A stretch of DNA of 64,000 nt from a virus, in IMG/VR virus record IMGVR_UViG_3300008952_002784, positions 1 to 64,000 of that record; one strand, 5' to 3'. The translations under genes and the position numbers were made by a program. This document shows positions 2 through 22,124 of this stretch, piece by piece. The stretch's first letter is position 1, and each line of letters begins with the position of its first letter. A model generated the notes under the pieces. The model saw only the letters and a program-made list of their open reading frames with translations. It had not been told where the DNA came from and searched no databases.

Positions 2-94
2 GACAGGATGATAGAAGACGACGCGAATTCTCCTATCGACGACACCGAAGGTTACGACGTCGACTTCGACGCCGCGAACCGGCGATTTATGTAA
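2..94 (+). CDS. 3' end of an acidic hypothetical protein (5'-truncated by the window edge)
   Basis: Open frame ...DRMIEDDANSPIDDTEGYDVDFDAANRRFM* ends at TAA 92-94, just before the AGGAG RBS of the next gene. Confidence 0.5.
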   Translation, partial: DRMIEDDANSPIDDTEGYDVDFDAANRRFM

Positions 95-111: not shown

Positions 112-375
112 ATGAAAATTACAAAGAGACAACTTAGAAGAATTATCAAAGAAGAGAAGGCTAGAGTATTGAGAGAAGCTGGCCCGAATCTCCCACCAAC
201 ATACCCACTAAATCCTAGTGGCGTCGAATCAATGCTCGCACAGAAGATGGCTAACCTTGATCCGCTCGTCGACGGATTCGACCGAGACTTCATGAGACTA
301 GCAGAGGCCGTTATTGAACTAGAATATAGCGGCTGGGGAGGCATTATTGATGCCTTGATCGATTTAGGGGACTAA
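112..375 (+). CDS. Small protein with conserved MKITKRQLRRIIKEE leader (putative virion internal protein)
   Basis: AGGAG RBS; N-terminal leader shared with the neighbouring ORFs; acidic remainder. Confidence 0.8.
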   Translation: MKITKRQLRRIIKEEKARVLREAGPNLPPTYPLNPSGVESMLAQKMANLDPLVDGFDRDFMRLAEAVIELEYSGWGGIIDALIDLGD

Positions 376-376
376 A

Positions 377-601
377 ATGAAAATTACAAAAAGACAGCTT
401 AGAAGAATCATTAAAGAAGAGAAGCAAAAGCTTAACGAGGGCGCTCGAGAAATGGCGGCGCTCTTGAATGCTGTCGATGCTTTTAAGGCCGCCGGCGGTG
501 CCAATCAGGGGTATGTCATCGATGTACTCAGGACTATCGCTGATGAGATGGAAAACGAGGAATACGGTACCGACATCAGCGACTTCACCGGTCGACGGTA
601 A
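377..601 (+). CDS. Small protein with MKITKRQLRRIIKEE leader
   Basis: Same leader followed by KQKLNE and an unrelated acidic cargo region. Confidence 0.8.
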   Translation: MKITKRQLRRIIKEEKQKLNEGAREMAALLNAVDAFKAAGGANQGYVIDVLRTIADEMENEEYGTDISDFTGRR

Positions 602-615
602 ATAGGAGAACTCAC

Positions 616-1320
616 ATGAAAATCACGAAACGACAGCTTAGAAGAATGATATCAGAGGCAATGCCCCGCGGGAGTGTACCAGACATCGTTGGGGCTCTTA
701 CCAATGTGCCAGGCGGAAATATTCAAAACTTGGTCGACGAGTATAAGAAATGGGCCATGGAGTATATGGGTACATCTAGTGGGCCCAACTCATCGTCTGT
801 TCTCGCGACGTTCCTGGTGGATCAAGGGCTAGACCAAGGACCCACAGCTGAAGACATCATTACAGACATGTCCTCAGCCATGGAGTTCGATAAGCACGAT
901 GTTAATCGTGAAGTATCACACGCAAGAAGAGAGTACGACGCAGGACGGACTCTTCCTGAGGGAAAAGTGAAAATTACAAAACGACAGCTTCATAGAATCA
1001 TCAAGGAAGAGAAAGCTAAGCTTCTCCGCGAATCAGTTGCAGATATACGCCATTTTGAAGAGGCAGCAGACAAATGTGCTGAACGTATGTCTGACTTATT
1101 TTATAATGATATGATGAAGCTTTATGATGAAGAGCCTGATGCCTTTGCACGCCCTGTCCCGGGCTCGGAGGCAATGACTCGCACCGAAAAAGGTGTTTGG
1201 GAACAGCAGGTTGTATACGCTACTCAAGAACTTGAAAATGCTATTTCGTTTTCCATCGCTCAAGCCATCGAGGAAATAGAAATGAAACTACATGATGGCC
1301 AGTATCACGACGACAGGTAA
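616..1320 (+). CDS. Protein with two leader copies (N-terminal MKITKRQLRRMISE and internal VKITKRQLHRIIKEE)
   Basis: AGGAG RBS; second leader copy in frame at GTG 967. Confidence 0.8.
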   Translation: MKITKRQLRRMISEAMPRGSVPDIVGALTNVPGGNIQNLVDEYKKWAMEYMGTSSGPNSSSVLATFLVDQGLDQGPTAEDIITDMSSAMEFDKHDVNREVSHARREYDAGRTLPEGKVKITKRQLHRIIKEEKAKLLRESVADIRHFEEAADKCAERMSDLFYNDMMKLYDEEPDAFARPVPGSEAMTRTEKGVWEQQVVYATQELENAISFSIAQAIEEIEMKLHDGQYHDDR

Positions 1321-1324
1321 TATA

Positions 1325-1729
1325 ATGAAGATCTCAAGAAAACAGCTCAGAAAAATTATTCGAGAAGCTCAGTGGGGAAGATTTACTGGCGGTGCAGCAC
1401 CGCTGGACGAGCCGCCTTTGGATTCCGGAAAGATGGATCCTGAGCAGCAGCAGAAGGTATTCGATATCTTGGTTGATACAGGCTCAGACCCTAAAAAGCT
1501 TCTTGCTTCCGGCGAATTTCCTGATGTCGTAACAGAGGTGAGGCTCAACGAGAGAGGAACTGGTAATCCCGCGCTTCGGGCAGATGAGCAGGCAATAACA
1601 AAAGCAGTAGCGGACTTTGTTGACAAGTACATGATGACTATGGGCATGAACCCAGGTGATGATCGTGACTTACAAAGAGCTCGACGCGTCGTTGATGATA
1701 TCGTCGGCGCAGTATTGGATGTGTTATAA
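1325..1729 (+). CDS. Protein with variant leader MKISRKQLRKIIRE
   Basis: Start moved from 1292 to ATG 1325, where the leader begins; TAATG overlap with the next gene. Confidence 0.75.
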   Translation: MKISRKQLRKIIREAQWGRFTGGAAPLDEPPLDSGKMDPEQQQKVFDILVDTGSDPKKLLASGEFPDVVTEVRLNERGTGNPALRADEQAITKAVADFVDKYMMTMGMNPGDDRDLQRARRVVDDIVGAVLDVL

Positions 1730-2247
1730 TGAAAATTACAAAGAGACAACTCAGAAGAATTATTAAAGAAGAGCTTGACATTATTAATAATGAAACCGGC
1801 CAGGTGTTTGAATTTGGTGACGAACCACTAAGCTCACATACCCCCGAAGCTGCATGGCCTGAATTGGCTAAGCGCTTAGGCATCAAATCGCTACAAGATG
1901 ATCTAGACGACGATGCAATTTATGTTAGTGGCGAAGATTGGGATAAGCTTGATAATGAAGTGATGGGTAAACGCAATGATAGAAATCGTAAGCGAGCTTA
2001 TAAAGAACGTGAAGCTGAAAGAGCCAGGCTAAACATTGACAACCTCAAAGCCCGTCTCGATCAATGGGCTGATGATGCTGGGGCAGATTATTCTGCTGAT
2101 AACCCTGGCGTAGATATGCAGAGTATCGCTTGGGATCTTGCTTCAGGAGCAAAATATTCATTTGCTCCTGATGAGTGGGACGAGCTAGTCTGGGAATTTG
2201 ATGATAGTGAAGATGATCTGATAACATATATTGCAGAGATGATCTAA
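1729..2247 (+). CDS. Acidic protein with MKITKRQLRRIIKEE leader
   Basis: Leader plus a D/E/W-rich body; translationally coupled to the upstream ORF. Confidence 0.8.
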   Translation: MKITKRQLRRIIKEELDIINNETGQVFEFGDEPLSSHTPEAAWPELAKRLGIKSLQDDLDDDAIYVSGEDWDKLDNEVMGKRNDRNRKRAYKEREAERARLNIDNLKARLDQWADDAGADYSADNPGVDMQSIAWDLASGAKYSFAPDEWDELVWEFDDSEDDLITYIAEMI

Positions 2248-2283
2248 TAACATATATCCCATATAACGTTACAGAGTAATTAA

Positions 2284-2397
2284 ATGAAAATTACAAAACA
2301 CCAGCTAAGAAGAATTATTAGAGAAAAGAAGGCTAGGTTACTTCGACAGTCGATTTCTGATGTGCATAATTTGCTAAGTATATATGTTACCTACTAA
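2284..2397 (+). pseudogene. Truncated 37-aa member of the leader family (MKITKHQLRRIIREKKARLLRQSISDV...)
   Basis: Read directly from the sequence (too short for the ORF track); resembles the internal copy at 967 but ends at TAA 2395-2397. Confidence 0.6.
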
Positions 2398-2764
2398 AGA
2401 AAGCATCGAGTCTTTATTCAAAAGTCTAGTTCAAGATATTACAATTTCAATGTTTCCAACGCCATTGGCAATTATAGACGAACAGATTTCTTGTGTCAAT
2501 ACTAATCTAGCTATAGAAAAGTCTTGTTATGGTACTATCGATCTAGATGATAGAACTGATCTTAAGATTTTATCATGCAGAAATTGCGCTTCGTACGATT
2601 GCTCGCCTCGTATTCAAGCAGCTATGAAAAACAAAGCAGGTATAGGTTACTGCTGGATTCACAATATCCCATGTACACTGTCTAGAACATGCAATAAGCA
2701 CTGTACTGGTAAGTCAATTACTAGTGATAATGAGTCTTACAGTAAACAGAAAAATTCACTGTAA
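2384..2764 (+). CDS. Cys-rich hypothetical protein
   Basis: 126-aa ORF with CRNC, CWIH and C..H-C clusters; possibly metal-binding. Confidence 0.5.
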   Translation: MLPTKESIESLFKSLVQDITISMFPTPLAIIDEQISCVNTNLAIEKSCYGTIDLDDRTDLKILSCRNCASYDCSPRIQAAMKNKAGIGYCWIHNIPCTLSRTCNKHCTGKSITSDNESYSKQKNSL

Positions 2765-2815
2765 TATCGAATCACATTGTGTGACAGATTTCTTAAGAAA
2801 ATATTCATATTGTTG

Positions 2816-2844
2816 ATGTACTTTTTGCATATTCTGTCTAGACT
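2816..2844 (+). promoter_or_regulatory. Putative promoter ATGTAC-N17-TAGACT upstream of the Hsp20 gene
   Basis: Intergenic; matches the recurring motif with an exact 17-nt spacer. Confidence 0.6.
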
Positions 2845-2897
2845 ACATTATGTGAATTTCACATCTAGACAACACTAACATCATTAGGACATATTAT

Positions 2898-3353
2898 ATG
2901 AGCAGCCTCTTTCCAATTACTCGAATCAACGAACTGGGATCCATGGACCAAAATTTTGACACTTTTTTTAACACACTGTTTGGTGATTCATCAAATCAGA
3001 CTCGCATTTCTAAAAACAGCGCAATATCTACTGTGCCAAGAGCTAACGTTTCGAAAAACGATCAAGGATACTTGATTACACTAGCAGCACCCGGATTATC
3101 ACGAGAAGACTTTGGTATCAATATTGAAAATAATACACTTTCTATAACATCGAATTATGAAGATGAGTATGTAGAGAAAAAATCTAACTACACGACTCAA
3201 GAATTTGAATATAGCACTTTCACCAGGACATGGTCATTGCCCGAAGGCATAAATCCTGATTCTATTAGTGCTCGTTATGAATCCGGATTACTCAAAGTTG
3301 ATATTCCTGCAGGTGGTGATATCACAAAGAAGGTAATTATCAAAGTAGAATAA
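2898..3353 (+). CDS. Hsp20/alpha-crystallin small heat-shock protein
   Basis: PRANV...APGLSREDF...FTRTWSLPE...ARYESGLLKVDIP alpha-crystallin signature. Confidence 0.93.
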   Translation: MSSLFPITRINELGSMDQNFDTFFNTLFGDSSNQTRISKNSAISTVPRANVSKNDQGYLITLAAPGLSREDFGINIENNTLSITSNYEDEYVEKKSNYTTQEFEYSTFTRTWSLPEGINPDSISARYESGLLKVDIPAGGDITKKVIIKVE

Positions 3354-3374
3354 GCGTTAATTCACTTAAGTTAC

Positions 3375-3408
3375 AAAAGGAGGTTTCGAAAGGAGCCTCC
3401 TTTTTTTT
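3375..3408 (+). terminator. Rho-independent terminator
   Basis: AAAAGGAGGTTTC-GAAA-GGAGCCTCCTTTTTTTT hairpin with U-tract after the Hsp20 gene. Confidence 0.88.
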
Positions 3409-3547
3409 ATATCAAGAACATCTAGATTCACATAGATAAGAGGCAAGGTATACTTAAATGAAAGTTTGATTTACTAAACAATTGCTAGCGCTAATATTTT
3501 CGCTACAATTGCAACCACAGCTTTAGACAACAAGGCGGCTTTCCATT

Positions 3548-3946
3548 ATGTTTCGTACAATATTAATATTGACAGCTTTTTTAACTACCCAACTGGGTAT
3601 TGCCCGGGCGCAAGAATCATGTACTCGAGTATTACTTGAACCAGCTACTAGTACATCACTAAACTTAGACACCACTCAGACTCTTCCACAGCTCAGTACT
3701 GATCCTGGTGAAAATATGACATATTCGTACCCAGTCCTAATTACTAGTAATTCAGAGACTAGACCCACGCATGTTCAAAGAATTATAATCATGAACGTCG
3801 ACGAAGACGGTAGAATTATAATTACGCCCATGTTAATTGATTCAATACCTGAGGCTTTGTGGCCTATTTCAGAAATTCTAGAAGACATTGAAAACGAAGC
3901 GACAACGCCTCTGGACAATATTGAAGAGGCTAAAACTGAAATTTAA
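3548..3946 (+). CDS. Hypothetical exported protein
   Basis: N-terminal signal-peptide-like segment ending in ARA/QE. Confidence 0.6.
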   Translation: MFRTILILTAFLTTQLGIARAQESCTRVLLEPATSTSLNLDTTQTLPQLSTDPGENMTYSYPVLITSNSETRPTHVQRIIIMNVDEDGRIIITPMLIDSIPEALWPISEILEDIENEATTPLDNIEEAKTEI

Positions 3947-3958
3947 ATTCAGCATAAC

Positions 3959-4549
3959 ATGAATTCATCACTAGTAACATATTTTCTAATGTTGTTCGCT
4001 GCGCCGAATGTAAAATATGTCGATCATAGTAGCAGCCAAGAACTAGTTCATATATATCAGGCTAGAAGTTCAGACATACCGGTATCATACACTATTGAAA
4101 GAGATCACACGTGGTCATCTTCTCCGGATATTATTATCTGCACTGAGTTGATGATGGATAAGGCTATCGTTGTCAGAGCACTATCACATTGGGAACAGCT
4201 AGGACACCGATTCCGTGAGGTCAGTATGACTCTGTGTGACTCTAATGAGCTTTATGATGGTTGGTTAGGAGCGATATACTTTGTCAATCCAGAGCAAAAC
4301 TACGACTTCCGGAAGCTTAGTAACTCAATAATATCATACGGCGTAAAAAAAAGTGGTGAGACTAATATTGTAGGCTCAGCTATTATGTTGACATATGACA
4401 GTCGCCGCGATATTCGAATATTAATTCATGAGTTGGGTCATGCACTTGGTTACTCACACTATAATATTCCCGGGCACCTTATGAACCCTGTGCTTCAACA
4501 AATTGGTCAATCAACGACAGGTTTACATGTAACGGAATTATCACAATAA
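3959..4549 (+). CDS. Matrixin-like (M10/metzincin) zinc metalloprotease
   Basis: HELGHALGYSH (HExxHxxGxxH) and Met-turn HLMNP; hydrophobic N-terminus. Confidence 0.85.
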   Translation: MNSSLVTYFLMLFAAPNVKYVDHSSSQELVHIYQARSSDIPVSYTIERDHTWSSSPDIIICTELMMDKAIVVRALSHWEQLGHRFREVSMTLCDSNELYDGWLGAIYFVNPEQNYDFRKLSNSIISYGVKKSGETNIVGSAIMLTYDSRRDIRILIHELGHALGYSHYNIPGHLMNPVLQQIGQSTTGLHVTELSQ

Positions 4550-5843: not shown

Positions 5844-6638
5844 ATGAAAAACATTATTTTATTTGACTTAGATGGAACTTTAACTCCCGCACGTGGGCGA
5901 GCTGATTGGTCTATGGTTAACGCTCTTCGAAGTCTATCTGAGCATGCTGATATTGGAATTGTATCTGGCAGCTCATGGGAGTATATCAAAGAGCAAACCG
6001 CGTTGTTTTGGGAATTCGGTGCTGTACCGGTAAGAAAAATAAAAATTATGCCATGCAACGGGACTCAATTGTATGAGTTTCACAATTCAGATTTCAAATT
6101 GATAAGCTGTTTAAGCATGAAAGAGTATTTGGACGATGAAGAATACAAGAATCTGATAGCTGTATTATGCACCATTCAGTCTCAATACCTCAATGACAAC
6201 AAGTCTCTTCCCGTTACGGGAAATTTTATTTCATTTCGAAAGAGTTTAATAAACTGGTGCCCAATTGGCAGAGACGCAGAGGACAGTGACAGAGAAGAGT
6301 TTGTCAAAGCAGATCATGATCAAAATATACGTAAAAAATTCAAAGAACTTATTATAGCTTATTTAGATCTTTATGAGCTTTCAGACAAGCTAGAAGTAGT
6401 TATAGGTGGGAACACATCTATAGATATATACCCAATTGGGTGGGACAAGAGAATATCACTATCCCACTTGCCTGCTAGTCAATTGCCATGGTTTGTAGGG
6501 GACAGGTGTACACCAGGGGGAAATGATTACTCGCTGTACTCACATCTGGTGAAAACCGGTCGGGCATATGAAACTTCCGGGCCGAGTCAGACTATTGAAA
6601 TTATCAATAATATTATTAGCAGCATCAAGAAGACATGA
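5844..6638 (+). CDS. HAD-IIB phosphomannomutase (eukaryotic PMM/Sec53 type)
   Basis: FDLDGTL, FISFRKSLINWCPIGR, SIDIYPIGWDK and GDRCTPGGNDY motifs typical of the PMM family. Confidence 0.88.
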   Translation: MKNIILFDLDGTLTPARGRADWSMVNALRSLSEHADIGIVSGSSWEYIKEQTALFWEFGAVPVRKIKIMPCNGTQLYEFHNSDFKLISCLSMKEYLDDEEYKNLIAVLCTIQSQYLNDNKSLPVTGNFISFRKSLINWCPIGRDAEDSDREEFVKADHDQNIRKKFKELIIAYLDLYELSDKLEVVIGGNTSIDIYPIGWDKRISLSHLPASQLPWFVGDRCTPGGNDYSLYSHLVKTGRAYETSGPSQTIEIINNIISSIKKT

Positions 6639-10795: not shown

Positions 10796-11998
10796 ATGTC
10801 AATTTTTCGTGAACATAAGAGAGTTGCAGATCGATCAGCATCTGACAGACGTCGTCACAAAAAGAAAATTGAGAGAGCGATTAGAGATGGTGTACACCAT
10901 ATTGTCGCAGATGAGTCTATTATTGGTCAAGATGGGACAAAAAAAATAAAAATCCCGGTCCGTGGTATCAAAGAATATAAATTTATCTACGGTGACAACA
11001 AAACTAACAAGAACGTAGGTTCTGCTCCCGGCAAGGACATCAAAAAAGGTCAAGTTATTGGCGATGCTGGTAGTCCCCAACAAGCACCTGGATCGGGTGA
11101 GCCTGGGAATGAAGCTGGTGAAGAGTATTACGAGGTAGAAATTACCCTCGAGGAATTATCATACTACTTGTTCAATGATTTAGAATTACCTGATCTAGAA
11201 AAAAAGACTCTCAAGAATATTGTGGGTGAAAAAATTAAGCGCCATGGCTATAGAAAGAATGGAATTCGGCCGCGACTTGATAAGAAAAAGACGATTATAA
11301 ACAAAATCAAGAGGCAGAAAGCAACTAACCATGAAAATAAATTATCTGGCAGTGTAGGAAACGATGAAGAGAGCTTTCCATTTCATGAAAACGACTTACA
11401 GTACAGGCACATCAAGGTTACAAATAAAGAATCTAGTAACGCTGTAATATTTTTCCTCATGGATGTGTCCGGTTCGATGACACAAGAAAAGAAATTTTTA
11501 GCTAGAAGCTTCTATTTTCTATTGTATCATTTCATTAGACATCGCTATGAAAAAGTCGACGTCATATTTATAGCACATGACTCAGAAGCATATGAAGTTG
11601 ATGAAGAAAAGTTTTTTCAGCGTGGTAATAGTGGCGGTACAATAGTCTCGTCAGGTTTAGTCAAGATTAATAATATTATTGATAAGCGTTATCACCCATC
11701 ATTGTGGAACGTATATGTTTTTCAATGCTCTGATGGTGATAACTGGTCTAGTGATACTCAAAAAACTCTAGAAGAAGCTCAAAAGCTAAAAGACAAAAGC
11801 CAACTATTTGGCTACTGCGAAATTGAGCCTGAGGATGAGAGAATTAAGTGGACAACTAGCGAGTCTAGAATGTCATCTGTATATGAAGTACTTAGTGGCG
11901 GAAATTTTAAAATTGTCAAAGTTTTCAATAAGCATGATATATGGCCAGGGTTTCAGAAACTATTGGGCAAAAAAATGATAGGCAAGGACAATACATAA
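10796..11998 (+). CDS. yeaH: YeaH/YhbH (DUF444) vWA-like protein
   Basis: DRRRH...; FFLMDVSGSM (MIDAS DxSxS), SGGTIVSS and SDGDNW motifs. Confidence 0.92.
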   Translation: MSIFREHKRVADRSASDRRRHKKKIERAIRDGVHHIVADESIIGQDGTKKIKIPVRGIKEYKFIYGDNKTNKNVGSAPGKDIKKGQVIGDAGSPQQAPGSGEPGNEAGEEYYEVEITLEELSYYLFNDLELPDLEKKTLKNIVGEKIKRHGYRKNGIRPRLDKKKTIINKIKRQKATNHENKLSGSVGNDEESFPFHENDLQYRHIKVTNKESSNAVIFFLMDVSGSMTQEKKFLARSFYFLLYHFIRHRYEKVDVIFIAHDSEAYEVDEEKFFQRGNSGGTIVSSGLVKINNIIDKRYHPSLWNVYVFQCSDGDNWSSDTQKTLEEAQKLKDKSQLFGYCEIEPEDERIKWTTSESRMSSVYEVLSGGNFKIVKVFNKHDIWPGFQKLLGKKMIGKDNT

Positions 11999-13311
11999 TG
12001 TTTTTAGAAGACTGGGATTTCAAATTTCTTCAAGAGTGGGATGATAAAATAAAGATTGCAGCTGAAGAAGCTGGATTAGATTGGTTTGACATACATTACG
12101 AGGTATGTGATTACTTGTCAATGATAGGCCACATGTCATACCATGGTATGCCTTCTCATTACGGTCATTGGAGTTTTGGAAAGTCATTTGAAAGAACTCA
12201 ACAGCAATACAATTTGGGCATGTCCGGGCTCCCTTACGAGCTTATAATAAACTCTGATCCCTCGATTGCATATCTCATGCGTGAAAATGCTGCGTACCTT
12301 CAGTTGCTGATTATGTGTCACTGTGTAGGTCACTCTGATTTCTTCAAAAATAATCGTATGTTTAGTCATACTGGGCCCAAGTCTATTGTTCAAAGAATGC
12401 GATCATCTAGAAAAAGAATTCAATCGTACATTGAAGATCCAACTATTGGAATTGTGTTAGTAGAAGAAGTTCTAGATGCTGCGCATGCGATTCAATTCCA
12501 AACTCATAGATATCATATTAATCGACCGTCTGAAGAAGAGCTCAGAGAAAAATATACCAAATTGATAAAAGAAGATGTTGATGGGAAGTACAAAGATTTT
12601 GATCTAGATGATATACCACTTGAGCCTGAGTATGATTTACTCAATTTTGTCATTAATCACGCGCCGAAGATTCCGGACTGGAAAAAAGATATTCTAGAAA
12701 TTGTCCGGAACCAATCACAATATTTTATCCCTCAAATTCAGACAAAAATAATGAATGAGGGCTGGGCATCATTCTGGCACTATAGACTAATGCATACACT
12801 TGATCTTCCACAAGAATATCATCTTCCTTTTTTGAAAAGTCATAATCAAGTTATTAGACCGCATATTGGTGGTCTAAATCCTTACCATCTGGGTTTTGAA
12901 ATGTTCAAAAGAATTGAAGAGCGTCACGGAATAGATGAGTGCTTTATTGCAAGAGAAACATGCCATGATGCATCTTTTCTACGACAATACCTTACACAAA
13001 ATGACTGTTACGAGTTAGGATTGTTTAGTTTTTCTAAACAAAAGGACAAATTTGTCATTGATGAAATATCAAATGATGAAGGATGGAAAAGTGTGAGAAG
13101 TGACTTAATCAACAATGTTGGGACTAATGGTATACCCGTTATCTATATTGATAGTATTGATGACGGTGACATGCTAATATTACGTCATGAGCATGATGGT
13201 AGAGATTTAGATCTTTCACATGCTGACGAGGTTGTTGTACACTTAACAACTTTATGGGGTGACGTCGTCAAATTATACACAATTGTCGAAGGCGACATCT
13301 GGGAGATCTGA
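11998..13311 (+). CDS. spoVR: SpoVR/YcgB family protein
   Basis: HWSFGK, YELIINSDP, HCVGHSDFFKNN, QTKIMNEGWASFWH and NPYHLG; start at the TAATG overlap at 11998. Confidence 0.93.
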   Translation: MFLEDWDFKFLQEWDDKIKIAAEEAGLDWFDIHYEVCDYLSMIGHMSYHGMPSHYGHWSFGKSFERTQQQYNLGMSGLPYELIINSDPSIAYLMRENAAYLQLLIMCHCVGHSDFFKNNRMFSHTGPKSIVQRMRSSRKRIQSYIEDPTIGIVLVEEVLDAAHAIQFQTHRYHINRPSEEELREKYTKLIKEDVDGKYKDFDLDDIPLEPEYDLLNFVINHAPKIPDWKKDILEIVRNQSQYFIPQIQTKIMNEGWASFWHYRLMHTLDLPQEYHLPFLKSHNQVIRPHIGGLNPYHLGFEMFKRIEERHGIDECFIARETCHDASFLRQYLTQNDCYELGLFSFSKQKDKFVIDEISNDEGWKSVRSDLINNVGTNGIPVIYIDSIDDGDMLILRHEHDGRDLDLSHADEVVVHLTTLWGDVVKLYTIVEGDIWEI

Positions 13312-13351
13312 GTTATGAAAAATCAATTAATCACCAAGGGTAAGGTAACCA

Positions 13352-15301
13352 ATGAGTAAGAAAAAAGCTGTGACAGAAAAAGAATTCTTAGACATTATTC
13401 ATAGTCAGCGTTCTGACAGTAGAAAAGAAAAGAAATTTCGAGGCACATTTTTAGAGTATTTAGATCTCGTCAAGAAGAATCCGGAGATCGTAATACTGTC
13501 ACACAAAAGACTTCGAAATGCACTCGAATCCCATGGTGTCCGAACAATGGATAGCAGTGACTCTAGAAAAAACAAGATCTTCGGTGGTGATAATATCAAA
13601 ATATATGATTATTTTGATAGTGAGTTTTTTGGTATGGAACGAGTAATCTCAAAAATAATGAGATTCTTGAATTCAGCTGCTAGTAAGGGAGAAGAGAGTC
13701 GACAAGTTCTACTTCTAATGGGCCCAGTTGGTGCAGGAAAATCTGCGCTTACAGAGCATATCAAAAGCTCCCTAGAGGGATTTACTTACTATCACTTAGA
13801 AAATGATCCTCAAAGAGGTGAGCCGTTACAGCTAATTCCAAGAAGTCTTAGGGATCAGTTCAATAGCATGCTAGGTGTATCGATCGATGGAGATATAAGT
13901 CCAGTAGCTAGATGGAACCTTCTAGAAGACTATGATGGAAAATATGAAGACATGACTGTTGTTGAAACAACATTTTCTCAGCGAGGCCGGAGAGGAATTG
14001 CATCAGTCCCACCAATGGACGCAAATAGTCAGGATGTAGGAGTTTTGATTGGTACAGAGGATATATCTAAGCTTGATAAGTACTCTGAAGATGACCCACG
14101 TGTTCTATCACTTAACGGTGCATTCAATGTCGGTAATCGTGGGATTGTAGAGTTAGTTGAGGTTTTCAAGAACGAAATAGAATTCTTGCACACCATTATC
14201 ACAGCAACACAAGAAAAAAGAATCCCATCACCTGGAAAGAATGACATGTTGCACTTTGACGGTGTTATTCTTGCACACTGTAATGAATCAGAGTGGAATC
14301 GATTCCAGAGTGAGCATACTAACGAAGCTATTATGGATAGAATTGTTAAGATCAATGTTCCCTATATTTTAGAATTAGATAGAGAAGTCATGATTTATGA
14401 GAAAATTCTTAGTAGGTCTGATTTTGACGCCCATATTGCGCCGCATACTCTAGAGGTTGCTAGCATGTTCTCTGTACTTTCTAGACTTAAGCCCTCTAGC
14501 AAGTGTGATCTACTTACAAAGATGAAAATATATAACGGTGATGAAGTTATTGAAAAAGGTCGTGTAAAGAAGGTAGACATTGAAGATCTAAGAGAAGAGT
14601 CTAGCGATGAGGGGATGAAAGGTATATCAACACGATTCATAATGAAAGCTATAGATAATGCACTAACTGACTCTGACAAAAATATCATAACACCTATAGC
14701 GATTATAGATAGTGTTATCAAGCAAGTCAAAGAACAGATTATCAATGAAGAATTCAAGACTAAGTGTCTAGAAATCATTCAGCAAACTGTTAGAGAAGAA
14801 TACTTGAAAATTCTAGAAACAGAAATTGCTAAAGCATTCATATCAGCTTACTCAGAACAGGCTCAGAATTTATTTGATACATACTTGGATAATGCTGAAG
14901 CTTACACAACACGTCAAAAAATGAAAGATAAAGTTACGAAAGAAGAGCGATCTCCCGACGAACACTTCATGAAGATTATCGAAGAGCAAATTGGTATTAT
15001 AGGGTCTGCACGTGATGGATTCAGAAGTGATGTTACTGCTTATATGTTTGCAAAAATGAGACGCAAAGAAACAATCAATTATCAAAGTTATGAGCCGCTC
15101 AAAGAAGCTATAGAGAATTATCTAATAGGCTCAGTCAAAGATATGGCTAGAATTGTTACAAAATCTAAAACCAGAGATGATGACCAACAGAAAAAATATT
15201 CTGAAATGGTACAGACGCTAATTGACGATTATGGTTATAATGAACATAGCGCTGAAGAGATTCTGACGTATGCTAGTAACAATCTTTGGCGAGATAACTA
15301 A
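13352..15301 (+). CDS. prkA: PrkA/YeaG AAA+ ATPase ('serine protein kinase')
   Basis: EFFGME, LLMGPVGAGKS Walker A, GNRGIVELVEVFK, HCNESEW, EAIMDRI and EGMKGISTRF. Confidence 0.93.
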   Translation: MSKKKAVTEKEFLDIIHSQRSDSRKEKKFRGTFLEYLDLVKKNPEIVILSHKRLRNALESHGVRTMDSSDSRKNKIFGGDNIKIYDYFDSEFFGMERVISKIMRFLNSAASKGEESRQVLLLMGPVGAGKSALTEHIKSSLEGFTYYHLENDPQRGEPLQLIPRSLRDQFNSMLGVSIDGDISPVARWNLLEDYDGKYEDMTVVETTFSQRGRRGIASVPPMDANSQDVGVLIGTEDISKLDKYSEDDPRVLSLNGAFNVGNRGIVELVEVFKNEIEFLHTIITATQEKRIPSPGKNDMLHFDGVILAHCNESEWNRFQSEHTNEAIMDRIVKINVPYILELDREVMIYEKILSRSDFDAHIAPHTLEVASMFSVLSRLKPSSKCDLLTKMKIYNGDEVIEKGRVKKVDIEDLREESSDEGMKGISTRFIMKAIDNALTDSDKNIITPIAIIDSVIKQVKEQIINEEFKTKCLEIIQQTVREEYLKILETEIAKAFISAYSEQAQNLFDTYLDNAEAYTTRQKMKDKVTKEERSPDEHFMKIIEEQIGIIGSARDGFRSDVTAYMFAKMRRKETINYQSYEPLKEAIENYLIGSVKDMARIVTKSKTRDDDQQKKYSEMVQTLIDDYGYNEHSAEEILTYASNNLWRDN

Positions 15302-18719: not shown

Positions 18720-19081
18720 GGGGACGCACCGGTTTCGACAGGGTAGTCTAGAAGGATAGTGCAAGTGCTCTAATGATGATTCGAGCTAAAAGATTTATCA
18801 AAAAAATAATTGCTAATAACAATAATTTCTACAACGTAGCTCTAGCAGCTTAGTAGTGGGGTTTTCAATAACCTTATTACCCAATATTGAATAATAGGTA
18901 GAGATCCTATGAAAATAACAAATCAAAAATGGTTACCCTGGAAACAGGTGGAATCCGAGGCAACATAGGAATGGGAATTTTGTTGCTACCTTTTTAGTTT
19001 GGGAATAAGCTAAATAAACTTGTGAATGACTTGAATTTAACGTTATCTTGGACAGGAGTTCGACTCTCCTCGTCTCCACCA
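18720..19081 (+). ncRNA. ssrA: tmRNA; tag peptide (A)ANNNNFYNVALAA encoded at 18812-18850 followed by TAG TAG
   Basis: 5' GGGGACG pairs with 3' CGTCTCC-ACCA with a G3.U wobble (Ala identity); GGTTTCGAC near the 5' end; T-arm AGGAGTTCGACTCTCCT; tag ends in ALAA. Confidence 0.96.
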
Positions 19082-19242: not shown

Positions 19243-20454
19243 TTGGCTTCATCAACAAAAAGTTTGTTTTCAAAAAGAAGCAATGCAGTTGTAACCAAAC
19301 CCAAGATCATCAACAATGTTATAGAGACACATAATAGCTTAGTTATAAACGACAAGGAAAAAGAAATGGCTGGACAAGAAGATACAAAAGAAGACACTTA
19401 CATAAACCCTGCGGATGATCTTGGGTTTGACTTTGTCGAAGCATATGACGATGATCCCGTAGAAGCAGATGAACGGATGTTACCTGAGAATTCATCTGCT
19501 TGTGCTATTAAGTGTGCATTTATTGGTGTTGGCGGAGGTGGTGGTAAATTAGCTAAAGCATTTCTAGATTTAGGATTTTCGAAAACAATATTGGTAAATA
19601 CAACAGTCAAAGATCAGCCTGCAGGTGTAGCGCCCGAAAACTTTTTACTTATGCCTGGTGCTGACGGTGTGGGAAAAGATATAGATGTGGGTCGTCAAGT
19701 GCTCAAGGAAAATAGTACTCTATTAGAAGACGCGCTTAGAACACGAATTGGGCCGGTTGATTGGGTATTTGTTCTAGCGGGTGGCGGAGGTGGTACAGGT
19801 AGTGCGTGTTCAACACTACACAATTCTATTGATAGACACCTAAAATCATGTGAATCAACTGGGAAGGTTGTCTATGTTATAACAAAACCATCTGCTCAAG
19901 AACTACTAAATCCTACGATATCATCAAATTATAAATCTACAATCGAAGATGTTTCTAGACATCCCCATATTGTAATTGACAATGAACGACAACTTCAATT
20001 GCTCAGAGGCAAGGTAGGGATGCTTGATTTGTATCCGTCTGCTAATAGAAATTTTGCTAAGTTAATGGCGCAAATATTTAAACTCTCATCAGAAAGTTCG
20101 CCTATTCAATCATTTGACACTAAAGACTTAGAACGATGTTTGGGTACACCAGGAAGAATGGTTGTGGGTAGTACTATAGCTAGAGATACTAACATTAGAG
20201 ACTTAGGATCTTCCTTATTTCAGGGTTGTATCAAATCATCGCCGTGTTCTGCCCCACGAGGATCGATAGCTACTGGAGCTATGTTACTAGTAGTTACATC
20301 TAACATGGCAAATGATCCAGTGGTTAGCAAAAAATTAGAAGCAGCTCTTTCATATGTCGGTGGCAGAACTGAGACATTATTCTCAGGAATCTATGTTAAT
20401 GAATCCGTTCCGGGACTAATAGCTATTACATTACTTGGCGGCATTGAATCATAA
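19243..20454 (+). CDS. Tubulin/FtsZ-family GTPase (PhuZ/TubZ/CetZ-like); alternative start ATG 19366
   Basis: IGVGGGGGK (T1), GADGVGKD, GGGGGTGS tubulin signature, IDNE and SFDTKDL (T7-like). Confidence 0.88.
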   Translation: MASSTKSLFSKRSNAVVTKPKIINNVIETHNSLVINDKEKEMAGQEDTKEDTYINPADDLGFDFVEAYDDDPVEADERMLPENSSACAIKCAFIGVGGGGGKLAKAFLDLGFSKTILVNTTVKDQPAGVAPENFLLMPGADGVGKDIDVGRQVLKENSTLLEDALRTRIGPVDWVFVLAGGGGGTGSACSTLHNSIDRHLKSCESTGKVVYVITKPSAQELLNPTISSNYKSTIEDVSRHPHIVIDNERQLQLLRGKVGMLDLYPSANRNFAKLMAQIFKLSSESSPIQSFDTKDLERCLGTPGRMVVGSTIARDTNIRDLGSSLFQGCIKSSPCSAPRGSIATGAMLLVVTSNMANDPVVSKKLEAALSYVGGRTETLFSGIYVNESVPGLIAITLLGGIES

Positions 20455-20825: not shown

Positions 20826-22124
20826 GTGAGAAAGTCTTTAATTTTAGATACATCAGTACTTTTATATGATAAAAATTCAATTCATTCATTTCCGGGTAAC
20901 GATGTTATTTTGCCCTTTGTCGTCTTAGATGAACTCGATAGATTTAAAGACAAGCAGGGTATATTAGGTGAGTCAGCTAGACATGTCAATAGATATCTAG
21001 ACGATCTAAGAGGTTTGGGAAGACTGGATGTGGGTGTTCACATAGTAGAAACAGATCAAACTATAAGGGTTATGACACAAGACTTTGTCAAACCAGGGCT
21101 TGATCTGGGACTGGATATTACATTTGGTGATAACAGAATTATATCAACAGCTCTAAAGCTTAAAGTTGAGTCTGGCTCAACTATTAAGGTCATTACAAAA
21201 GATATAAATCTTAGAGTAAAATGTGATGCGCTCGGAATTGCTGCAGAAGATTACTACAAGGATCATATTTCTATAGAAACAACTGAAGAGAAAACGGGTG
21301 TATGCGAATTGCAGCTTAGTGACAGTCAGATCGACAGAATATTTTCAGATGGAAGTATTGTTTTAGGTGACAGCAATGATAACAATTTATTCGAAAATTG
21401 CTATGTTGTTGCCAAGTCATGTTCAAACAAGTCAGCGCTGTGTGTCTATAAAAATAAAAAGATTCATAAAATTAAAGATAGCGTACATGGTGATGTGACT
21501 AGCATTACACCCAAAAACAAAGAACAAACATTTGCTATGCATGCACTAAGTGATTTAGATATTGACTTAGTTTGCTTAACAGGTATCGCGGGCTCTGGCA
21601 AAACGTTCTTGACATTGGCGTCTGCGTTGGACGCACTCCATAAAAAACAATATGATAGAATAGTCTTCACCAGATCAATTCAGCCCGTAGGCAGAGAGAT
21701 GGGTTTCTTACCTGGTGATATGAATGAAAAGATGCACCCGTGGATTATGCCGCTTATTGATAACTTTAGACACACATATAAAGACATATCATATTTCAAT
21801 ATTATGATAGAAAAGGGTCAAATCGATATCGCTCCGTTAAGTTATATTAGAGGGAGAACGTTTAATAATTCTTTTATAATTGTTGACGAAGCACAAAATG
21901 CAACAATTCATGAACTCAAAACTGTCATAACACGAGTAGGAAAAGATTCAAAAATTGTTTTGTTAGGCGATACTGACCAGATCGATACACCCTATATTGA
22001 CAAGCGATCCAATGGTTTGTCAGTTGTTTCTAAGAAGTTGGCCGGTAGTAAATTAACAGCTCATGTCAACTTAAGTAAGGGTGAAAGATCTGATCTAGCG
22101 ACACTAGCGTCACTGAAACTCTAA
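20826..22124 (+). CDS. phoH: PIN-domain PhoH-family ATPase (PhoH2/YlaK type)
   Basis: ILDTSVL...LDELDRFK...DNRII...TKDINLRVK (PIN); GIAGSGKT, GFLPG, YIRGRTF, VDEAQN and GDTDQID. Confidence 0.93.
   Translation: MRKSLILDTSVLLYDKNSIHSFPGNDVILPFVVLDELDRFKDKQGILGESARHVNRYLDDLRGLGRLDVGVHIVETDQTIRVMTQDFVKPGLDLGLDITFGDNRIISTALKLKVESGSTIKVITKDINLRVKCDALGIAAEDYYKDHISIETTEEKTGVCELQLSDSQIDRIFSDGSIVLGDSNDNNLFENCYVVAKSCSNKSALCVYKNKKIHKIKDSVHGDVTSITPKNKEQTFAMHALSDLDIDLVCLTGIAGSGKTFLTLASALDALHKKQYDRIVFTRSIQPVGREMGFLPGDMNEKMHPWIMPLIDNFRHTYKDISYFNIMIEKGQIDIAPLSYIRGRTFNNSFIIVDEAQNATIHELKTVITRVGKDSKIVLLGDTDQIDTPYIDKRSNGLSVVSKKLAGSKLTAHVNLSKGERSDLATLASLKL

Follow-up and report, generated by a model that had tools for sequence, protein, structure and literature searches.

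Capsid-targeting sequences (CTS) are described, in the sections of the literature drawn on here, as stretches of 10-20 residues that are removed by the protease gp21, and the sets of internal proteins are said there to vary among T-even phages (PMC9026906, PMC3012670, PMC5694885). In the T4 record the internal proteins IPII and IPIII have a common start, MKTYQEFIAE followed by A, ahead of unrelated bodies. The SPN3US paralogues gp53 and gp54 carry an identical 15-residue N-terminus which, in the part of that work used here, its authors likened to the T4 CTS (PMC5694885). We analysed an array of small genes that share a conserved N-terminal leader at the beginning of the virus record IMGVR_UViG_3300008952_002784 of IMG/VR; its positions 1 to 64,000, a stretch of 64,000 nucleotides, are called the window below. 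We hold it a little better than an even chance that this leader is the N-terminal capsid-targeting propeptide of a giant T4-superfamily phage lineage, a view built on comparative sequence evidence.

The leader, MKITKRQLRRIIKEE or a near variant of it, occurs seven times in the window, at 112, 377, 616, 967, 1325, 1729 and 2284, as had been proposed from the letters and the open reading frames (ORFs) alone (hereafter the sequence-only reading). Its conserved part is a 14-residue peptide, M-K-I-T-K-R-Q-L-R-R-I-I-K-E, the window copies being compared over 15 residues, and its net charge is +5 to +6. The ATG starts at 112, 377, 616, 1325 and 1729 carry it into ORFs of 87, 74, 234, 134 and 172 amino acids, respectively, and GGAG or GAGG stretches resembling Shine-Dalgarno (SD) sequences stand ahead of the copies. 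When the whole contig of 136,953 bp was scanned in six frames with a hidden Markov model (HMM) of the leader, the seven copies scored 31.6-38.3 bits and no further ones were found, the next best stretch reaching 4.8 bits. A degenerate back-translation of the leader, a pattern that misses the divergent copy at 1325, matched six times in the window against none in 100 shuffles. Every [I/L]-x-E motif that had been listed as ending an intact leader is present; the cargos behind the leaders are likewise unrelated and acidic, the six intact ones having isoelectric points (pI) of 4.1-4.6 and falling into separate BLASTP clusters.

Selection acts on the leader peptide, with synonymous and third-position differences prevailing in the leader: pairwise comparison of codons 2-15 gave 92 synonymous and 69 non-synonymous codon differences, and third codon positions account for 119 of 212 base differences. 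With 92 against 69, the sequence-only reading was right about the tendency of the copies to differ at synonymous sites and overstated it in calling the differences largely synonymous. Within the leader the mean pairwise DNA identity is 0.77; it drops to 0.40 over the 20 nt upstream and to 0.30 over the 45 nt that follow the leader. The G+C content of the array (1-2250) is 0.456, against 0.376 in the rest of the window, and at third codon positions the array has 0.32-0.53 where three reference genes have 0.27-0.32; the raised values may stem from exchange with other phages or from a difference in codon bias.

By its gene content, the contig is a fragment of a giant T4-superfamily myovirus (the CheckV completeness estimate of the record is 40%), with nearly all of its genes on the + strand. 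It encodes a gp23-type capsid protein (contig 113310-115175; PF07068, E 4.1e-76) and a prohead protease of the T4 gp21 type (Peptidase_S77, contig 107668-108282, E 2e-26), together with a portal, a large terminase, two tail sheaths, a baseplate wedge and a tail fibre. Peptidase_S77 is also encoded in all five related records with leader arrays. The closest capsid proteins, sought among 50,697 phage records, are all distant: 38% identity to the uncultured 484-kb phage LR756508.1, 37% to Microcystis phage Mel-JY01 and 44%, across 76% of the query, to Flavobacterium 'immuto' phages. A complete relative of 293,409 bp with direct terminal repeats (G001) is collinear with the contig, and 69 of the 110 contig ORFs match in it.

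The head and tail genes show some further features. The portal gene (contig 101179-106833, 1,884 amino acids) contains several insertions resembling HNH endonucleases, which may be inteins. The capsid gene is followed by a free-standing HNH homing-endonuclease gene (contig 115280-116695); G001 has instead two tandem capsid-gene paralogues (L051 5770-7668 and 7762-9651). The two tail sheaths (contig 121634-127915) are adjoining paralogues of 1,064 and 1,012 amino acids.

A link between the leader and the head module comes from a 24-residue HMM built from 347 instances, all of them from other related viral loci, with which the N-termini of the 110 contig ORFs were scanned; a first HMM of 18 residues was too narrow and missed the N-termini in the head module. 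Outside the array, the best match of the longer profile is the ORF at contig 108750-109196 (MAKLTRSKLKSLVKECLVEILEEG; 12.6 bits, E 4.8e-4) and the second is the ORF at 109238-109564 (..KLTPSLLRKMVMQERKRIMRE; 7.5 bits, E 0.019); after these two and the array genes, the next ORF stands at E 0.77. Among 33,000 shuffled N-termini, none reached 10 bits and seven reached 7.5 bits. The first of the two ORFs begins 468 bases past the end of the protease gene and the second comes next to it, both lying upstream of an acidic scaffold-like gene (562 amino acids, pI 4.5) and of the capsid gene. The gene order of this head module is unchanged in five relatives, where the eight best of 66 ORF N-termini belong to the same two families (e.g., MAKITKRMLKGIVKECLVEIL); in the first family no part of the protein is better conserved than the N-terminus. 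Run over the genome and its relatives, as had been suggested as a check, the leader HMM picks out, besides the array genes, these two neighbours of the protease gene. A tblastn search with the two head-module proteins among the 50,697 phage records returned no match, and co-folding of the scaffold-like protein (562 amino acids, six-row alignment) with a 45-residue leader segment gave no answer (score 0.00), which counts neither in favour of binding nor against it.

The motif that ends the leader is fixed in position. Residues 12-14 almost always read [I/V]-x-E, which is the type of site used by the T4 protease, whose cuts fall after (L/I)-x-E; [LIVM]-x-E stands there in 357 of 372 modules, and in the relatives of the 172-residue protein, which were retrieved through the cargo and not through the leader, I12 and E14 are invariant (29 of 29). 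Leader modules that have a Glu at residue 15 (n=225) contain a second [LIVM]-x-E site in 194 cases, its Glu being residue 21 or 22 in 161 of them; the background is 24% of fifteen-residue cargo windows. Comparable sites are found in head proteins: the capsid protein of this contig has VLKE, then ASS, ahead of the conserved VRR..QPM block, where T4 gp23 has LTE, then AEIGG, and the N-terminus of T4 gp22 is MLKEQLIAEA.

The leader belongs to a very large family, and in this respect the seven copies counted by the sequence-only reading, correct for the window, underestimated its scale: it has thousands of members, in-frame fusions of several units among them. A profile of the seven N-termini retrieved 4,431 proteins at E<=1 among 7,479 candidates from a 90%-identity collection, and an exhaustive profile search found 3,895 representative clusters (50% identity) at E<=0.001 among 1.84 billion. 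Arrays were found at 33 viral loci, three of which duplicate others; the longest have about 25 leader genes in tandem, and the genes of an array share one strand. G001 has 33 leader matches: one array of 24 at 47.6-57.8 kb, another of 2 at 267 kb and a third of 7 at 284.5-286.3 kb; 26 of the 33 cargos have a pI of 5.0 or less. The median length of 372 modules is 110 amino acids, and the cargo is net negative in 87% of them.

In 185,579 species genomes the leader was found at only six loci on five contigs, all in metagenome bins with inconsistent labels, and gp23 is present in two of these five bins. Giant-phage contigs and metagenome bins were the only places where the leader turned up, isolate genomes never containing it. 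A cellular protein motif was rejected as an explanation, the species-genome matches being confined to metagenome bins, and so was a secretion signal, the leader having no hydrophobic stretch. The uncultured phage LR756508.1 has two tandem genes that begin MRLSERKLRRIVKEE and MTLSERKLRRIVKEE; it also has six tandem ORFs, four of which are profile matches with diverged leaders, located about 7 kb upstream of the genes for its scaffold-like and capsid proteins. Two paralogous ORFs of about 245 amino acids lie just upstream of its two leader genes (L012 3593-5073). The leader family is apparently undescribed: in published papers and preprints a text search did not find the string KITKRQL and topical searches returned no description of such leader arrays, both covering main texts and leaving supplementary files outside their scope.

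Behind this constant leader, the cargo is highly modular. At the viral loci with arrays, 406 cargos fall into 220 BLASTP clusters, 140 of which are singletons, and the order of the cargo clusters varies between genomes. Among 176 stored family proteins there are two leaders in 88, three in 6 and four in 2, in a sample biased to high scorers and therefore favouring multi-copy proteins. Nine stand-alone proteins of 111-117 amino acids (E 1.5e-71 to 1.1e-44) correspond to the second unit of the ORF at 616-1320 and begin at its leader, and the same unit is also fused behind other cargos. Internal leaders are mostly preceded by E-G/S/N-K, the in-frame translation of an SD-like GGAG or GAGG spacer.

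The turnover of these units can be followed between collinear genomes. The array has the same position here as in G001, to the left of genes for a trypsin-like peptidase, a helicase and PrkA, and its flanks are collinear with G001, yet only two of the three array ORFs compared were matched there. As suggested from the sequence by analogy with the internal-protein loci of T-even phages, this is a hypervariable array, its content differing between collinear genomes. The accompanying idea that leader DNA acts as a homology block for shuffling cargo gained little support, the longest exact in-register run shared by two leader DNAs being 6-24 nt; a secondary role of the leader DNA in recombination is a weak candidate.

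According to the reading that we favour, the basic amphipathic leader would dock small acidic cargo on the core of the assembling prohead, using the same recognition as the two conserved core-module proteins with a related N-terminus. The gp21-type prohead protease would then cut behind Glu14, at the [I/V]-x-E of residues 12-14, and, in the longer class of leader, also after the second [L/I/V/M]-x-E at residues about 20-22 (Glu21 or Glu22). This cleavage would free the cargo within the head, in-frame multi-unit fusions being split into units in the same way, and the freed cargos would exit together with the DNA, to act at an early stage in the host. These steps, from docking and cleavage to packaging and injection, are all ones that we infer. 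Structure prediction is compatible with a leader that looks detachable and outside the cargo fold: in the AlphaFold model of the 172-residue protein (mean predicted local distance difference test, pLDDT, 79.5) residues 1-3 and 7-14 are below 50 and the C-terminal half is above 90, and the fusion at 616-1320 is modelled as two helical modules joined by a linker (residues 112-118) with pLDDT below 50. The interpretation offered by the sequence-only reading is supported in part, by indirect evidence from computation, namely a T4-superfamily phage with a gp21 protease, a fixed [I/V]-x-E, a likeness to the head module and variable arrays, and has little behind it as regards the shuffling block.

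Several observations weigh against this reading. The matches in the head module are modest (12.6 and 7.5 bits) and were spotted by eye ahead of testing; the two genes are assigned as core proteins by their position, as is the role of the scaffold-like gene, since hhalign of the three families against T4 gp68, gp67 and gp22 gave probabilities of 0.4% or less. The arrays lie about 100 kb away from the head genes. The count of [LIVM]-x-E motifs in the modules is partly circular because the HMM seed that found the modules required a Glu at residue 14, and the motif is common, with a background of 482 in 1,973 fifteen-residue cargo windows (24%). The leader and the T4 targeting sequence MKTYQEFIAE have only the terminal I-x-E in common and are otherwise dissimilar in sequence. 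The internal proteins of T-even phages are described as basic in the sections of the sources used here (PMC9026906, PMC3012670, PMC5694885), and the cargos in our arrays are acidic, which makes them awkward to pack with DNA. In the model of the fusion, the internal leader, of the long class, runs straight into the first cargo helix (122-172). Finally, no cultured phage among the 50,697 records has the leader, the only match there being a weak one in the uncultured 484-kb phage.

A bolder version, which we regard as possible though clearly less probable than the targeting function itself, is that a universal tag loads a combinatorial arsenal, some of it as polyproteins cut at each internal tag, to be injected as a first-strike cocktail against host defences. 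In giant marine T4-like phages each genome would then contribute dozens of small acidic effectors, the cargo families running into thousands overall, and the tag would serve both as a key for finding injected effectors in a large unexplored pool and as a portable packaging signal. A counter-defence role of the cargo, for example by DNA mimicry, is only a guess, prompted by the acidity of the cargos and their quick turnover between genomes.

Among the alternatives to a targeting propeptide, the one that survives best, though it is improbable in our view, is a cytoplasmic family outside the virion, in which a basic helix binds nucleic acid or a host target, or oligomerises, the likeness to the head module being convergence. 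The predicted helicity and net charge (about +5.3) of the leader would suit such a helix, as would its continuation into the cargo in the long class; the arrays do lie among non-structural genes, remote from the head module, and the similarity found there is modest, at 12.6 and 7.5 bits. A binding helix, however, needs neither a fixed Glu14 nor a spaced second site, both of which suit a protease; 13-14 residues kept near-invariant over about 3,900 unrelated clusters argue for one receptor, and in six of six genomes the profile selects precisely the two genes beside the prohead protease.

The evidence for targeting to the head applies equally to another possibility, which we rate somewhat lower still: that the array proteins are directed to the prohead as disposable core or scaffold fillers of a very large capsid, to be degraded and expelled at maturation like T4 gp22, gp67 and gp68, and not as injected effectors. 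Their acidity recalls the scaffold-like protein (pI 4.5) and the acidic tail of T4 gp67, and many cargos contain further [LIVM]-x-E motifs, in 24% of fifteen-residue windows. Fillers should nevertheless be conserved, whereas 140 of the 220 cargo clusters are singletons and array content varies in collinear genomes; moreover, a conserved domain that folds well (pLDDT above 90 in the C-terminal half) is present in at least one cargo.

That the conserved element is the nucleic acid itself, a recombination or homology block shuffling cassettes or a conserved region of translation initiation, is very improbable. In its favour, DNA identity between copies is 77% in the leader and 30-40% in the flanks, units are swapped, fused and split exactly at leader boundaries, the contig breaks within the array and SD-like GGAG or GAGG precedes the copies. 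Against it, 92 of 161 codon differences are synonymous, third positions hold 119 of the 212 base differences, exact in-register runs reach just 6-24 nt, the peptide is kept in the distant 484-kb phage as MRLSERKLRRIVKEE with other codons and residues, and no Rfam family is found at the array.

The genes of the array, all on the + strand, can be described in order. Base 1 of the contig is also the first base of the window, which opens with the C-terminal 30 residues of a truncated acidic ORF (2..94; open 5' frame, stop at 94, pI 4.1), probably another array member; this position and this ORF tail make it probable that the contig end has truncated the array. The first complete gene (112..375, 87 amino acids) has its leader at 112-156 (38.3 bits), a second L-x-E site, VLRE, at residues 19-22, and a cargo of pI 4.3. 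In the second (377..601, 74 amino acids) the leader at 377-421 (37.0 bits) is followed by KLNE and the cargo has a pI of 4.5; for neither of these two genes was a family found in the Pfam or PHROG searches. The gene at 616..1320 is a two-unit fusion of 234 amino acids with the leader modules 616-966 and 967-1317 in one frame. Its internal leader copy VKITKRQLHRIIKEE (967..1011, 36.9 bits) begins with a GTG codon, with GAGGG 6 nt upstream, and could serve as a start within the gene and also as a site for the protease there.

The gene at 1325..1729 (134 amino acids, cargo pI 4.4) has the most divergent leader, MKISRKQLRKIIREA (31.6 bits); its cargo recurs within the multi-unit proteins P0041 and P0059. 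It is followed by the gene of 172 amino acids (1729..2247), whose cargo belongs to a conserved family with 38 full-length relatives at 42-56% identity. The last copy stands in a 37-residue stub (2284..2397, leader 33.2 bits), composed of a leader and a decayed module start, in which 17 of 37 residues are identical to the module at 967, E15 is changed to K and the second site reads LLRQ; the stub is probably left over at the edge of the array.

No Pfam or PHROG family was found for the array proteins, and among the family members listed as matches 4 of 120 contain a Pfam domain (EF-hand, zinc ribbon, DUF6240). The cargos showed no resemblance to a defence inhibitor in Pfam and PHROGs nor, for the 172-residue cargo, in PDB and BFVD; a Foldseek search of this last cargo against PDB and BFVD gave no fold match at E<=0.001, and comparison with a protein atlas gave nothing usable (best feature score 0.75, template modelling scores below 0.5). 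As for expression signals, TATAAATA, the core of the T4 late promoter, has only two occurrences on the + strand of the contig; no shared motif was seen in 36 intergenic regions inspected by eye, and the only sigma-70-like site on the + strand of 1-2283 is at 1100, within a gene. A known RNA element at the array was rejected, Rfam showing no family there; across 1-22000, Rfam returned nothing but a transfer-messenger RNA (tmRNA). This is a complete tmRNA gene (window 18720-19081, +; RF00023, 106 bits), for which ARAGORN predicts the tag peptide ANNNNFYNVALAA.

Other genes of the window were noted in passing. Between the array and its flank (2384-4549, +) there are four genes, none matched in G001: a cysteine-rich ORF of 126 amino acids with no family, Hsp20, an ORF of 132 amino acids and a remnant of a matrixin-like metallopeptidase; the Hsp20 gene is followed by a strong terminator-like hairpin at 3375-3404. 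Further along the + strand are a eukaryotic-type phosphomannomutase (5844-6638) and adjoining DUF444 (YeaH-like), SpoVR and PrkA kinase genes (10796-15301), with very strong Pfam matches, a set kept in G001 at 57-74% identity. An ORF with a weak Tubulin/FtsZ match (19243-20454, +; 31.1 bits, under the 33-bit cut-off) is followed by a PIN-PhoH fusion protein (20826-22124, +). A long run of sugar-modification genes (29888-58452, +) includes several glycosyltransferases, two of which also match a GT4 'conflict systems' family, as well as a methyltransferase-sulfotransferase fusion, a radical S-adenosylmethionine (SAM) enzyme, a GDP-mannose 4,6-dehydratase and a DegT-type aminotransferase.

If the leader is indeed a targeting propeptide, a 14-residue tag would mark all the proteins packed by an uncultured lineage of giant ocean phages, about 3,900 clusters to which no function is assigned, and candidate injected effectors, possibly with counter-defence roles, could be listed from sequence in phages not yet grown; it would also provide a compact, well-defined signal that might be tried for bringing foreign proteins into large capsids. 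A polyprotein-style delivery is suggested by the in-frame multi-unit fusions, undescribed for T4-type internal proteins.

The closest described counterpart is the T4 CTS carried by IPI, IPII, IPIII and Alt, which is also a short N-terminal peptide ending in I-x-E on unrelated small proteins; the phage studied here likewise encodes a gp21-family protease and a gp23 capsid protein, and in both cases the protein sets differ between related phages, as far as the consulted parts of the T4 literature go (PMC9026906, PMC3012670). In contrast with the T4 CTS, the present leader is 14 to about 22 residues long, strongly basic and far more tightly conserved; its cargo is acidic where that of T4 is basic, it occurs dozens of times per genome (33 in G001) instead of a handful, and in-frame multi-unit fusions are common. 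Cargo-loading peptides of encapsulins are comparable in that a short conserved terminal peptide directs varied cargo into an HK97-fold shell; they differ in being usually C-terminal, in not being removed by a protease and in belonging to cellular nanocompartments, with no sequence relation to the leader.

The phages phiKZ, 201phi2-1 and SPN3US are giant phages too, and their T4-gp21-related protease cuts after the Glu of a short motif; their propeptides, however, as described in the part of the source used here, are mostly longer than 100 residues, have the motif A/S-x-E and form small families (PMC5694885), whereas the phage analysed here is a gp23-type member of the T4 superfamily whose leader differs from theirs and heads many genes in tandem. 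Polyvalent proteins of phages and conjugative elements resemble the multi-unit fusions in that one polypeptide delivered with the DNA holds several conflict-related domains, but in the section of the source cited they are large, have known enzymatic domains and have no leader repeated for each unit (PMC5512222). The principle is known from the T4 CTS and the variable internal proteins of T-even phages; what is new is the sequence of the leader, its tight conservation, its scale, the acidic cargo and the multi-unit genes.

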